From Octopus vulgaris (lineage: Eukaryota), in assembly GCA_951406725.2 (NCBI GenBank), contig OX597825.1, forward strand, positions 5,766,001-5,830,000: a DNA stretch of 64,000 nt, given 5' to 3'. The stretch's first letter is position 1, and the number at the start of each line of letters is the position of its first letter. Made by a program: the position numbers and the translations under genes. The notes below the pieces were generated by a model. That model did not search any database. It saw nothing but the letters and a program-made list of their open reading frames with translations, and had not been told where the DNA came from. Positions 28,273-58,474 of this stretch are shown here, piece after piece.

Positions 28273-28644
28273 ATTCGTGGTTCGTGAGTGTATATTTAAA
28301 TGTATGTGTGTGTATGTGCATGTGTGTGTATGTGCATGTGTGTGTATGTGCATGTGTGTGTATGTGCATGTGTGTGTATGTGCATGTGTGTGTATGTGCA
28401 TGTGTGTGTATGTGCATGTATGCGTGTATATGTGAACGCAGTTGTGTACATTTCTCCAGTCCTTTATACATTTGTTTAATGTGTCTGTTCCAGTGCATGT
28501 CTCACTGCTTCTGTCACTGAGTTCAACGTCTGTCAGCAGCCTGTGTGCATATATATATATATATATGTATATATATGTATATATATAGGCATTTTTCAGT
28601 ACGTCTGGGCCGTTTAACTCGGAACATCTGTTCTCTTCTGACCT

Positions 28645-28686
28645 AACCTCCCTGTAGAAGAGCGTAGGCTCGAAAAGTTAAAGACT
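28645..28686 (+). ncRNA. Hammerhead-like motif, A6U variant family (degenerate copy)
   Basis: CUGUAGA-A-GAGC-GUAG-GCUC-GAAA-AG-UU-AAAGAC; same family as 39350. Confidence 0.55.
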
Positions 28687-28812
28687 TCCTCCATTTTTCC
28701 TGATCGTCAACCTAATAAACCCAGTTCTATATATATATATATATGAAGAATTATGTATATTATTTACATTATTCACATTTGACGGATATTTGTCCTCGTC
28801 TTCTTTGTTGTT

Positions 28813-28858
28813 AACACAACGTTTTGGCTGATGTACTCGCCAGCCTTCATCAGGTGTC
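28813..28858 (-). ncRNA. Minimal hammerhead motif (G12A lesion) in a ~170 bp module (28748-28910)
   Basis: GACAC-CUGAUGA-A-GGCUG..CAGCC-AAAA-CG-UU-GUGUU; module homologous to 47553-47722. Confidence 0.75.
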
Positions 28859-30084
28859 CTGGGGGGAATTTCGAACCTCGGTTCTCATTCCTAAGGATTT
28901 TTTTCGATGTTTTTTTTTCGATTATCAACCGAAATGATGAATCAATTTCAGCAGTTTGCAGTCTCTAATTTAAGCACAAGGCCAGCAATTTTGTGGGGAG
29001 GTGGGTGTGGAATAAATAGCGACAATGAACTTCAGTATTTCATTGCTACTTTACTTTGTCTACACTGAAAGAACGAAAGGCTAAGTTGACCCCGATAGGA
29101 TTTGAACTCATATCAATGATTCTGGCCTGGCCTAGATCTCCGTCAGTTGCGACAACTAGTGTTCCACTTGATTCGATCAACGGAGAAGCCTACTCATGAA
29201 ATTAACGTGCAAGTGGCTGGGTACTCCAAAGACGCACGTAGAGTTAACGTAGATCGCAAGGAGAAGGTGGTCCTTTTAATTAAAGGTACAACTCACCTTT
29301 ACCAGCTGACTGGACTAGAGCAACGTGAAATGAAATGCCTTGGTGAGGTCAAGGATACAATTCTCTTCCGGGAATCGAAATTGTGACCTTACGATTGTGA
29401 GCTGAAAAACCCTGCAATTGAGCCACGCACCTTCACAATAATTCGGAACAAATACCGCCGGACATTTTCCGACACCGCAGTAAAAGTCTCAACTTGAGAT
29501 GAATTGCGGTAGGCCACGAGAGAACGTATTCGTTGTAACCTAATGCTGGGTTTGGCGATGCTGCTGCCTGACATGCCTGGCTATTGGCAGCCATGTTTTT
29601 GTTTCTTGTTTTTTTTTTGTTTGTGGTTTGTATCGCTATTTCTAGTTTCCTCTCTGTGTAAGATTGTTTAGTCTGTGATGAAACAGAAAACTGAGTGAGA
29701 AATATTAATTTACATTGAACAAAGTTCTAACCCATTTAAAAAAAAATATTTTGTGTTTCCGTTTTGAAGTCCTGGTGACATATTTCTGAGTTATTTTAGT
29801 TTCTTCATAAAAATAACGTTAAGACTCAGACTGTATGAATATATATATATATATGTATGTATGTGTGTGTGTGTATGTATGTATTTATGTATATGTATGT
29901 ATGTATGTATGTGTGAATGTATGTATGTGAGAATGTATGTATGTATGCATGTATGTAAGTATGTATGTATGTATGTATGTATGCATGCATGTATGTATGT
30001 ATGTAACTATGTATGCATGTATGTATGTATGTACGTATGTATGTATGTATGTATGTATGTATGTATTTATGTATATGTATGTAT

Positions 30085-37101: not shown

Positions 37102-37195
37102 CATTATTATGATTCAGTAGTCTTATTTTTATCACGTGCTTTTTCACTGCACTACCGAGCGCAGCTCTGTGTGCCTTGGGTATGTGCTGTAGTTG
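37102..37195 (-). mobile_element. 3' UTR of a second Dong-like LINE family
   Basis: cactaccgagcgcagctctgtgtgccttgggtatgtgctgt is identical to the 3' UTR near 47843-47882. Confidence 0.85.
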
Positions 37196-37830
37196 TTGTT
37201 GTTGTTGGTGTTGGTGGTGGTCACCTCAAGCGCCTGAGGAAAACTCTCAGAAGCGCTAGAGCCGCGGAAGGGAGACGAATCATCTCATCCATTGTAGGCC
37301 CTAGTTGACGGATATAGCGTTCCACCATCAAGGCCGGACATCTCAGCCAGAGATGCTCTGCAGATTACAGTCAGCATTGATCTGTGTTGCTGCGTCCTGC
37401 CATGTTTTGCCACCGCCTGAGTGCCGGATGGTGACCACTACGGGAGCTTATCCTGTCTGCCTTCGAGAGGGCTGCTTCGGTTCTTTCATCCGGCTTCTTC
37501 GTGAAGACTTCCTTCAGACGGGGGTGTTGAATTGGCGTTGGCTGAAATGTTCGACGAATAACCGCCTGACGAATGGCTGTATCGATGGCGGCATCCCGTT
37601 GTGACAGCGCCGAGTCATGTTTCGCCTGCATATCTGCGAGTTCATTGCCACGGAGGTTGCAATGGCCCAGATCACCGACAAATTCTTGCCAACTGCTACT
37701 ACTAGGGCTGCTGTTTGTTGCAATTCTCTAATTGTCGGGTCTGGGGGGAACGGGTTGTCTACCGCTTCAACCAATAATTTGCGCTGGAGCAAACGCGCTG
37801 AAGGATTTAGCTGAACAAATCGTCTCAAAT
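37193..37830 (-). mobile_element. I-group LINE 3' end (RNase H plus CCHC-like remnant) with (CAA)n tail
   Basis: GHCNLRGNELADMQAK (RNase H motif), RSGHHP, SAEHLWLRCPAL, then LRRLR* followed by caacaacaa. Confidence 0.82.
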
Positions 37831-38949: not shown

Positions 38950-39349
38950 TACAGACAGACTGATGGACGGACAGACAGAAAGACGGACGGACTAATGGAT
39001 GGGTGGGTGGATGGATGCATGGATGGATGCATGCATGCATGGACGAACAGACGGACGGACGGACGGACGGACGAACAGACAGACGGACAGATGGACGGAC
39101 GGACGGACATATGGATGGATGGATGGACGGATGGATGGATAGACGGATGGATCGATACATACATGCATACATTATACATACATAAATACATATGCAACAT
39201 ATATAAGTATATACCTGCAATACACATACACATGCATACATAAATATTCTCTGTTTTATAGGGAGAGTTTACGAAAAAAAACAAAAGACGAAGATAGGTG
39301 GTGTACGAAACGAACAGATGTATTAGTATAACGCTCATGAATAGAAAAA

Positions 39350-39391
39350 GTCTTTTACGTTTCGAGCAAACGCTCTTCTACAGAAAGGGAC
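39350..39391 (-). ncRNA. Minimal hammerhead-like motif, A6U core variant
   Basis: Minus strand: GUCCCUUU-CUGUAGA-A-GAGC-GUUU-GCUC-GAAA-CG-UA-AAAGAC. Confidence 0.7.
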
Positions 39392-39561
39392 AGAAAAAAC
39401 AAGGAGAGAAAAAAATGTGTGTAGTGGCTAACCTATAACCATATATGTCGTATATGTGAAATGTACATATGTATGCATGTGTGTTTGTTTAAGTATATAT
39501 TTATATGCATGTGTGTGTTTGAGTGAGCGTGTGTATGTGTCTGTGTGCATGTGTGTATGCA

Positions 39562-41932: not shown

Positions 41933-41986
41933 CATCATCATCATTATTATTATTAATATTATTAATATTATTATTATTATTATTAC
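41478..41986. repeat. (ATT)n array, ~0.5 kb
   Basis: Direct inspection; abuts the 5' end of the RT fragment. Confidence 0.97.
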
Positions 41987-42860: not shown

Positions 42861-43092
42861 ACAATAAAGGAACGGCCATAATAGGCCATTCACCCACTAG
42901 AAATAACAGCCAAAGCTTCAACCGCAAATAAAAGTCAATTCAGTAAACCAGGAGAAAATTTAAAAAACATTTTTTTTTTTTTTTTTTTAATTTTCTCCTG
43001 GTTTACTGAATTGACTTTTATTTGCGGTTGAAGCTTTGGCTGTTATTTCTAGTGGGTGAATGGCCTATTATGGCCGTTCCTTTATTGTTGAT
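42857..43092. repeat. Perfect 104 bp inverted repeat with 28 nt A/T spacer
   Basis: 42857-42960 is the exact reverse complement of 42989-43092. Confidence 0.97.
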
Positions 43093-43413: not shown

Positions 43414-43429
43414 TATATATATATATATA

Positions 43430-43805
43430 TATCGGGCTCGGTAAAAAGTAAGCTACGTTTTGAAACATGAAATTCATCACAATATATTTCAACAATGCGG
43501 AAATTTTATCCATCAATCAACACAGATTTGCCAACGAGTTACAAGATTGTTTATTCCGGTAACATAAAAATATGGAGTTCTGGCGCTTATGAACTCTTTG
43601 AACGCACTTTCATCATTGGTTTGATTTTTGAACTCCTTCTCTCACAAGAAACCATATAGGTGCTTGAAAAAATAGTAGTCGGTAAGAGAACAGTCTGGGA
43701 AATAAACTGGGTGGGGAAGAACTTCGTAGCCAAGTTCTCTGGACTTCTGGAGCCTCATTAGCGAAACGTGTGGTCGAGCATTGCCATGAAGAATGATTGA
43801 CCCAC
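43430..43805 (-). mobile_element. Mariner 3' remnant
   Basis: IILHGNARPHV...LGYEVLPHPVYFPDCSLTDYYFFKHL...TGINNLVTRWQICVD. Confidence 0.9.
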
Positions 43806-47484: not shown

Positions 47485-47627
47485 CCTTTCTCATATTATA
47501 TCGGTTGAAAAAATGTTTATACCATTTTTTTTGTTCTATATTTAAGAGATGAGGAATTATGTACATTATTTATATTATTTACATTATTTACATTTCACGG
47601 ATATTTGTCCTCATCTTGTTTGTTGTT

Positions 47628-47673
47628 AACACAACGTTTCGGCAGATATACCTTCCAGCCTTCATCAGGTGTC
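47628..47673 (-). ncRNA. Minimal type I hammerhead ribozyme motif with intact core and extra A
   Basis: GACAC-CUGAUGA-A-GGC..GCC-GAAA-CG-UU-GUGUU; 5 bp stem I. Confidence 0.8.
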
Positions 47674-47720
47674 TTGGGGAAATTTCGAACTTGCGTTCTC
47701 CTTCCTAAGGTACTTTTCGA

Positions 47721-47808
<88 letters not shown>

Positions 47809-47811
<3 letters not shown>

Positions 47812-48161
47812 TAGTTTTATTTTTATAGCGTGCTTTCACTTCACTACCGAGCGCAGCTCTGTGTGCCTTGGGTATGTGCTGTGATTTGTTGTGATGCTCT
47901 GATGGTTATTGTATGGAAAGTGTTCTGCGTAGGATGTGTGCAGTGCCTAGTAGTGCAATTTTCTGTATGTTATATGTGTTTGTAAGTCCTGGTGTTTTTG
48001 TTATGTATTTGTCTGAATATTTTTTTATCATGCCTAATGCACCTACTATGATAGGAATTGTTTCTGTTTTCAGATTCCACATTCTAGTTACCTCTATTTC
48101 CAGGTCTTTGTATTTTGAGAGTTTCTCCATTTCTTTTAGAGACACGTTGTCATCTGCCGGT
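47809..48161 (-). mobile_element. R4/Dong-like LINE 3' fragment (REL endonuclease C-terminus, open frame, plus 3' UTR)
   Basis: ORF 47906-48145 KEMEKLSKYKDLEIEVTRMWNLKTETIPIIVGALG..IQKIALLGTAHILRRTL; followed by (TAA)n at 47723-47808. Confidence 0.9.
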
Positions 48162-48254
48162 ATGTAAATAATGTAAATAATGTATCATTTTTTTCTGTTG
48201 GCGGTTTCTAAACACGTGATTTCGTTTCTCATATGACCGACGTATAATCCCAGA

Positions 48255-48485
48255 CATGTTTTATGGAGATGGCTCCATAGTCAAGAGAACTGTTCGTAAG
48301 TGGTTCCCTGACTTTTGAAGTTAAATTTTTCATCAGGAAAACTAAGAATGTTCCGGGAAGCGTAGTCTTTGATGCTGACCAAATGAAAATGCGAATCAAA
48401 AGTAATTCAGGTCACATGACACGGGGTATGACAGAGAAGCTCCATATTTCTCAAACAATAGTCATAAAGTATTTAAAAACATTTA
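48255..48485 (+). mobile_element. Mariner transposase N-terminal (HTH) remnant
   Basis: YGDGSIVKRTVRKWF...DADQMKMRIKSNSGHMTRGMTEKLHISQTIVIKYLK. Confidence 0.75.
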
Positions 48486-58409: not shown

Positions 58410-58474
58410 GAGTTGTCTTAACTGATGAGGCAACGGAAATTGCCGAAACCGATGCGTCAATATTAGGAATTCTC
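58410..58474 (+). ncRNA. Type I hammerhead ribozyme motif with canonical core and GUC site
   Basis: CUGAUGA-GGCAA-CGGAAA-UUGCC-GAAA-CCGAUGCG-UC; stem I is out of register (apparent 4 nt deletion on the 5' side). Confidence 0.8.

Follow-up and report, generated by a model that had tools for sequence, protein, structure and literature searches.

The locus described here combines parts that resemble several known systems. Insertions of EN+ PLE elements, as reported for Adineta Pen2a and Pen3a (PMC3846280), in PMC8557442, and for Anolis Poseidon (PMC11167929), carry an inverted and 5′-truncated pLTR, a one-sided tail of 30–40 bp, and a target duplication of 8–10 bp. Where an insertion bears the inverted copy at one end, the tail usually lies at the opposite end (PMC8557442, PMC3846280). 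Its optional presence has been explained by two start sites for the reverse transcriptase (RT) (PMC11167929), and Penelope reading frames are reported to start inside the repeat (PMC11167929, PMC3846280). Minimal hammerheads of metazoan Penelope repeats reportedly show no cleavage as monomers (PMC4209133), and a 2026 preprint on non-LTR retrozymes ties such hammerhead repeats to Penelope (bioRxiv 10.64898/2026.07.22.740005).

The second relevant group comprises Dong of Bombyx mori, DongAg, and DongBg, which are TAA-targeting RT-REL LINEs of the R4 clade. These elements are reported to insert into (TAA)n in insects, molluscs, and cnidarians (PMC7998251; PMC3812793), and the Dong ribozyme that has been tested is a 5′ HDV-like RNA (PMC3774820). 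Dong-R4 and Penelope elements are both described as abundant in octopus genomes (PMC8967140), and recent activity in Octopus vulgaris is reported for five Dong-R4 families, with 1,129 insertions, and for 30 families of Penelope (PMC13282606). At the level of titles and abstracts, we found no LINE described as bearing a hammerhead at its 3′ end, no chimera of Dong and Penelope, and no hammerhead reported from octopus.

Anatomy of the 47-kb unit

The window examined herein, meaning the whole 64,000-nucleotide stretch of O. vulgaris DNA, is 37% GC and rich in microsatellites. At 47 kb, it carries a unit that, read on the minus strand, consists of a 24-nt inverted copy, the 3′ end of a Dong element, a (TAA)28 tract, and a 190-nt hammerhead module (Table 1). 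The initial annotation had named a REL frame, a UTR, a (TAA)n tract, the module, and an inverted match, and we found every one of these pieces where it had placed them. Its description did not include a target duplication around the unit, and it ended the unit at 47553, whereas the 3′ end of the module family puts this boundary at 47533. The inverted copy had been given as 48162–48184 with one mismatch; such a match is indeed present, but the copy is probably 24 nt long, position 48185 being the family's next base.

Table 1. Coordinates of the 47-kb unit, its parts, and related sequences in the window
Feature	Positions	Strand	Remark
Left copy of target duplication	48186..48194	−	9 nt, exact
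Inverted, 5′-truncated copy of the 3′ part of the module	48162..48185	+	Ends at tail-less class
5′-truncated end of R4/Dong-like ORF	47906..48161	−	84 aa plus stop
Dong 3′ UTR (99 nt)	47807..47905	−	Relative at 37199–37112, 91% over 89 nt
(TAA)28 tract	47723..47806	−	Dong tail and/or target
Penelope-type terminal-repeat module	47533..47722	−	Very abundant octopus family
Minimal type I hammerhead	47628..47673	−	Predicted cut between 47633 and 47632
Optional 30–40-nt “tail”	47533..47570	−	Present at this end only
Right copy of target duplication	47523..47531	−	9 nt, exact
Second module copy, without Dong upstream	28750..28911	−	GAAA changed to AAAA, ATG retained
Further 3′ end from this Dong lineage, without module	37112..37199	−	Short TAA stub behind it

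The sequence from 48184 to 48162 matches 47593–47571 with one mismatch and also matches 47584–47562 with one mismatch. Both registers fit equally well because this stretch is a 9-nt tandem. No inverted match of 23 nt was observed in 20 shuffled windows.

The exact 9-nt duplication (48194–48186 and 47531–47523) can be extended to position 48199, where 13 of 14 nt agree with one indel. Among 200,000 pairs of positions drawn at random, with microsatellites left in, 0.39% showed an exact duplication of at least 9 nt when the same freedom of offset was allowed, and Penelope duplications of 8–10 bp have been reported (PMC3846280). Given the tail classes and the habit of inversion documented below, together with the enclosing 9-nt duplication, the outer frame of the 47-kb unit is a Penelope-type insertion.

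Two other repeats were noted in the window. A very abundant SINE-like repeat, also present at about 20 other places, occupies 47485–47330 on the minus strand and lies 45 nt past the 3′ end of the unit. A long, near-perfect inverted repeat with arms of about 90 nt is located at 42875–43075, gives a below-threshold hairpin match to Rfam, and probably represents a small DNA element of the foldback type.

A Penelope-type terminal repeat and its minimal hammerhead

To characterize the module family, the region 47490–47749 was compared with three DNA runs (X1, X3, and X6) and with X16, which is an RNA run by guess; positions 47714–47749, at the upstream edge of the module, were set aside together with the loose ends there. 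Matching contigs numbered 23,327, 18,946, and 22,422 in the three DNA runs. Summed depth reached 4.8 million (X1), compared to 12–18 for long single-locus contigs, although this value is not a copy number. Run X16 gave no cover of the module, which says nothing on expression, and the unique 3′ flank of the unit had no cover in any of the four runs, perhaps as a result of the filter applied.

Family 3′ ends fall into two classes. Among the 18 loose-end positions listed of 745, ends at 47533 were represented by 515, 472, and 456 contigs in X1, X3, and X6, respectively, and ends at 47574–47580 by 294 plus 149, 241 plus 106 plus 121, and 259 plus 120 contigs. These two classes lie about 40 nt apart, correspond to the Penelope “tail,” and are evident in all three DNA runs with cover. 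At the 47-kb unit, the direct copy extends to the tailed end, and the inverted copy stops at the tail-less one (47574–47580). Moreover, five of the 15 joints listed among 65 change strand inside the module, and such opposite-strand joints in other copies indicate that inversion is a habit of the module family.

The relatives of the module open a reading frame at an ATG located about 35 nt before the hammerhead core. This ATG, at 47702–47700, is retained in the 28-kb copy and in named relatives but reads AGG in the 47-kb copy. Module translations match proteins named for Octopus bimaculoides and Octopus sinensis. An autonomous Penelope ORF with RT and GIY-YIG regions joined to the module frame was absent from the 27, 0, and 2 matches obtained in protein searches; among the 27, 17 were set aside as a related repeat of another type or as low complexity, and eight were aligned. 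The module motif gave no match in the viral_contigs or genome_contigs collections. One metagenome_contigs candidate (L001) was rejected as a chance bacterial match.

Two octopus gene models, P0150 (TNF-receptor-like by its appearance) and P0145 (a dystrobrevin isoform), carry the module frame at or near their N-termini. Both leave this frame at the same residue, which could reflect either a splice donor shared within the repeat or an annotation artefact.

A second hammerhead module without LINE sequence had been proposed at 28748–28910. The copy exists (28911–28750), lacks an upstream LINE, starts at the same 5′ point, and is 87% identical to the 47-kb module. However, its hammerhead core is not intact, as GAAA is changed to AAAA. 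An A-run rather than TAA precedes this copy, and the frame of the relative P0130 shows, weakly, a short AAT-AAC lead-in before the module.

The module is thus a terminal repeat of Penelope type that contains a minimal hammerhead, and the Penelope-type nature proposed in the initial annotation is borne out by the tail classes, the inversions, the hammerhead, and the ATG within the repeat. Like the EN+ PLE insertions of Adineta, Anolis, and PMC8557442 cited above, the 47-kb unit has a 5′ inverted copy, a tail at one end, and a short duplication, and its reading frame starts in the repeat near the hammerhead. Unlike them, it contains only about 190 nt of repeat without RT or GIY-YIG sequence, its autonomous partner was not found in our searches, its inverted arm is merely 24 nt long, and a LINE piece lies between the arms. 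The module also shares with the non-LTR retrozymes, as these are portrayed in the preprint, a type I hammerhead, a non-coding nature, a relationship to PLE repeats, and many solo copies. It differs in that there is no head-to-tail multimer, both module copies of the window being solo, and in that its hammerhead is minimal rather than canonical.

The hammerhead (47673–47628) exhibits a fully paired helix I (5/5 pairs, three of them G-U or A-U), the CUGAUGA segment, one unpaired A, GAAA, a palindromic CG, and a GUU cut site. Its helix II forms five of six pairs and has a U-U mismatch at 47644 that is specific to this copy: more than 99.5% of read depth carries the pairing base at this position, which restores helix II in the family majority. 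Thus, the core is intact at 47 kb, as had been proposed, but the hammerhead as a whole has a helix II defect that is rare among copies. In a scan for minimal hammerheads, this motif was the sole match in the window, compared to a mean of 0.02 matches per shuffle (100 shuffles).

Rfam models returned no hammerhead match on the window and yielded only microsatellite noise. An unconstrained fold of the monomer was no better than those of shuffled sequences (z 0.00), and an unconstrained fold of the dimer did not give the active hammerhead form. Because minimal motifs are expected to escape free folding, the folding results are not evidence either way.

The hammerhead belongs to the Penelope repeat. 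In common with the minimal hammerheads described for metazoan PLEs by Cervera and De la Pena (2014, PMC4209133), it has a short helix I, an extra base before helix II, a G10.1-C11.1 pair, a palindromic CG in place of helix III, and mostly solitary copies. It departs from them in its 6-bp helix II with a copy-specific mismatch and in its GUU cut triplet. Since it occurs as one minimal motif on its own, little or no cleavage is predicted for the 47-kb hammerhead. No description of this octopus hammerhead/Penelope family was found in the portions of the literature covered.

Several other hammerhead-like sequences occur in the window. A motif with intact CUGAUGA and GAAA segments resides in a different repeat at 58410–58470 (plus strand), and the sequence beside it has a relative at 43427–43516. 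Degenerate hammerhead-like repeats of a second family are located at 28640–28730 (plus strand) and 39340–39400 (minus strand). The former meets the 28-kb module tail to tail across a TA run, an arrangement that resembles the opposite-strand pairs noted for Penelope hammerheads. A hammerhead-like stretch after the 36-kb TAA array was considered as a module relative and rejected (P 0.12 versus shuffles).

The Dong fragment and its unequal decay

The Dong frame (48160–47906, minus strand) is open for 84 codons and closes with a stop at 47908–47906. All 84 amino acids are identical to the C-terminal end of P0121, an RT/zinc-knuckle/REL protein of 684 aa with an intact frame whose best PDB matches are R2 proteins (E 7e-29). 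Identity to RT proteins of about 1,200 aa is 63–65%, and these relatives carry RVT_1. Through P0121 and its relatives, an RT, a CCHC knuckle, and a C-terminal REL were found in a single ORF. The fragment itself begins just past the PD..D of the endonuclease, indicating that the C-terminal REL end alone is present, and a Pfam search with the 84-aa piece returned no families.

A protein search with the fragment matched 121 of 204 candidates, including proteins of Exaiptasia and Sitophilus, whose elements are aligned as R4/Dong in PMC7998251. Among contig collections, the piece gave a single distant 518-nt contig (L002) without downstream sequence, and none in viral_contigs. On the strength of its architecture and these matches, the fragment most likely derives from a LINE of the R4/Dong clade. 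Compared to known Dong elements and to Octopus Dong-R4, it has the expected REL C-terminus, short 3′ UTR, 3′ TAA tract, and 5′ truncation, and tandem nesting in TAA tracts occurs elsewhere in the window. Unlike those elements, the 47-kb copy keeps no TAA unit at its 5′ junction, where the preceding residues of P0121 point to 2–3 nt of microhomology fitting both sides. Being truncated, the copy lacks the 5′ end that would be the site of any HDV-like ribozyme.

All four Dong pieces of the window touch a TAA tract or stub, and none of the other three has a module behind it. Behind the 3′ end at 37199–37112, which is 91% identical to the 47-kb Dong, come a short TAA stub, a second Dong family, and an array of TAA; the nearest module copy is 8.2 kb away. 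Within the window, therefore, one of two 3′ ends of this Dong lineage and one of two module copies participate in a Dong-module join.

Other arrangements of Dong sequence were also observed. The stack at 37199–36134 (minus strand) comprises the UTR stub of the first family (Dong-A), 8 nt of TAA, the 3′ end of the second (Dong-B, about 45% identical to the first in amino acids), and a 650-nt TAA/CAA array; it is a Dong nested in a Dong tail. At 41985–39835 (minus strand), a 490-nt TAA-type array precedes the decayed remains of a Dong RT body, interrupted by frameshifts and stops (about 41470–39835). In the proteins P0134 and P0153, an old piece of Dong RT body is in frame with an old module relative in the middle of the ORF; this piece is 35% identical to P0038 (E 1e-7), and the pairing is a further case in which the two classes lie side by side.

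The Dong part and the module have not decayed equally. Among the 40 differences listed of 78, the 47-kb module carries the minority base at four positions, with depth shares of 4–8% (47573), less than 1% (47596), less than 0.5% (47644), and 6–9% (47653). The module therefore holds four minority bases in 145 nt in addition to the lost family ATG. The probability that all four changes would fall in the 145 module bases rather than in the 352 Dong bases is 0.007.

The Dong part appears essentially unmutated, as judged from its complete identity to P0121 over 84 aa and from its words, which appear to be fully present in 6-Mb runs. Eight runs with six organism labels, two of them 6 Mb in size, hold 0.52 of the 64 words of a query spanning 47810–48480, of which the Dong share is 0.50. 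The simulated probability of a word share of 0.52 is 0.47 at 0% divergence, 0.05 at 1%, 0.005 at 2%, and 0.0002 at 3%, an age estimate that assumes random sampling of words and small runs holding Dong words only. Runs X1 and X2 hold 63 of the 64 words, and X3–X6 hold 60. The gap of three words in X3–X6 has the size of one SNP or of the junction between inversion and Dong, suggesting that the Dong piece may be polymorphic.

Possible origins of the composite unit

We consider it probable that the 47-kb unit arose when a young Dong element inserted into a TAA tract within an older Penelope insertion. To form the frame, a Penelope RT/GIY-YIG protein, presumably acting in trans, would have copied the terminal-repeat RNA from the tail start site as far as an upstream stretch rich in A/TAA. 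The other end would have been closed by a 24-nt inverted copy initiated at the tail-less site, leaving a duplication of 9–14 nt. The Penelope copy would then have aged, during which it may have gained several substitutions and an indel between the duplicated target copies and lost its ATG. Judging from the known target of Dong, a Dong element could subsequently have made its nick in the TAA tract, copied 355 nt of its own 3′ end by reverse transcription, and joined at 2–3 nt of microhomology at the left edge of the tract. We infer this order of events, the enzymes involved, and the earlier presence of a TAA tract inside the Penelope insertion. The TAA target of Dong and the other Dong pieces of the window, which lie at TAA without a module, support nesting.

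The initial annotation had inferred that the LINE sequence and the hammerhead module were reverse-transcribed as one RNA, and did not weigh the TAA-repeat target of Dong. We prefer a later Dong insertion because it produces the same anatomy and better fits the difference in decay. Nevertheless, no full TAA unit separates the inverted copy from the 5′ end of Dong, unlike the Dong-B junction at 37.1 kb, which keeps 8 nt of TAA, and a donor with a young Dong before an old module would also yield unequal decay. It is conceivable, although rather unlikely, that such a donor locus existed, with a young Dong preceding an older module within a TAA tract. We likewise treat as a minority possibility that a Penelope RT, acting in trans, copied a read-through RNA whose end lay in the Penelope repeat, the copy being truncated in Dong and closed by inversion. 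This route corresponds to the first of the two options offered in the initial annotation. Consistent with this route, the inversion abuts the Dong truncation point, and a single duplication encloses the whole unit. In Adineta, Penelope repeats are reported to be enough to mobilize unrelated sequence in trans, and a read-through of flanking (AAT)n has been proposed (PMC3846280); both Dong-R4 and Penelope are described as recently active in O. vulgaris (PMC13282606). A low-copy donor is possible as well, since the non-majority depth at 47644 is small but above zero.

Other observations fit this route less well. Where the direct copy carries its variant at 47573, the inverted copy shows the family-majority base in both registers, such that a shared RNA would require a second RNA template or a later mutation. 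This argument is weak, however, because the 28-kb copy shares the variant 9-mer, and thus the base at 47573 may be a shared minority variant. The indel in the extended duplication fits an older event than the unmutated Dong suggests, no second Dong-TAA-module locus was seen within the window, and in reads of the DNA runs the variants of the 47-kb module show no sign of an amplified subfamily. As in the Adineta captures of an NRPS gene and of non-coding sequence (PMC3846280), foreign sequence lies between an inverted and a direct repeat within one duplication. In those cases, in contrast, an empty allelic site is reported to have proved the event, whereas no empty site was seen at 47 kb, and here the cargo is a TAA-targeting LINE that sits beside a TAA tract and looks younger than its frame.

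A Dong lineage carrying the hammerhead module as its own 3′ end, which is the undescribed LINE with a 3′ hammerhead raised by the initial annotation, is the least probable explanation and a very improbable one. The two parts are adjacent and in the same orientation at one locus, and P0134 has a Dong-like piece in frame with a module relative, though mid-ORF rather than at a 3′ end. This proposal is contradicted by the related 3′ end at 37199–37112 that has no module, and by the unequal decay of sequences that should decay alike if they were parts of one element. Furthermore, the tail, inversion, and ATG signatures seen across hundreds of junction contigs belong to the module itself, and the ribozyme tested for Dong is of the 5′ HDV-like type (PMC3774820).

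It is also quite improbable, if slightly less so, that the 23-nt inversion is due to chance or to a separate event, or that the locus is mis-assembled. The inverted stretch is rich in AT and forms a 9-nt tandem, no contig covers the entire compared region (47490–47749), and the 3′ flank is without cover. Against this, the shuffled windows yielded no such match, and the inversion ends at a major end class of the family, directly against the duplication, which together favor the Penelope-style inversion originally proposed over coincidence. Two samples (X1 and X2, either of which may be the source) hold 63 of 64 words across the flank, the inversion, and Dong.

Both nesting and movement on a shared RNA are known kinds of event. 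If a later Dong insertion is correct, the unit would represent an ordinary meeting of two known and abundant classes of octopus retroelements at a TAA tract. We hold as a tentative and less likely possibility that young Dong elements landing in TAA tracts immediately upstream of Penelope repeats make read-through RNAs, which terminate in Penelope initiation sites and are dispersed by Penelope RT, with the 47-kb unit as one product. If true, this would constitute an octopus route that lets one class of retroelement spread another beyond its TAA target and a clear case of a Penelope RT moving LINE sequence in trans, and the junctions would test whether the inverted arm derives from a second RNA. 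As a by-product, the analysis provides an octopus Penelope repeat that is clean and very abundant and that has a minimal hammerhead, an ATG, and two end classes. These end classes match the two-start-site model of the “tail” that is reported from in vitro work on Anolis Poseidon (PMC11167929).
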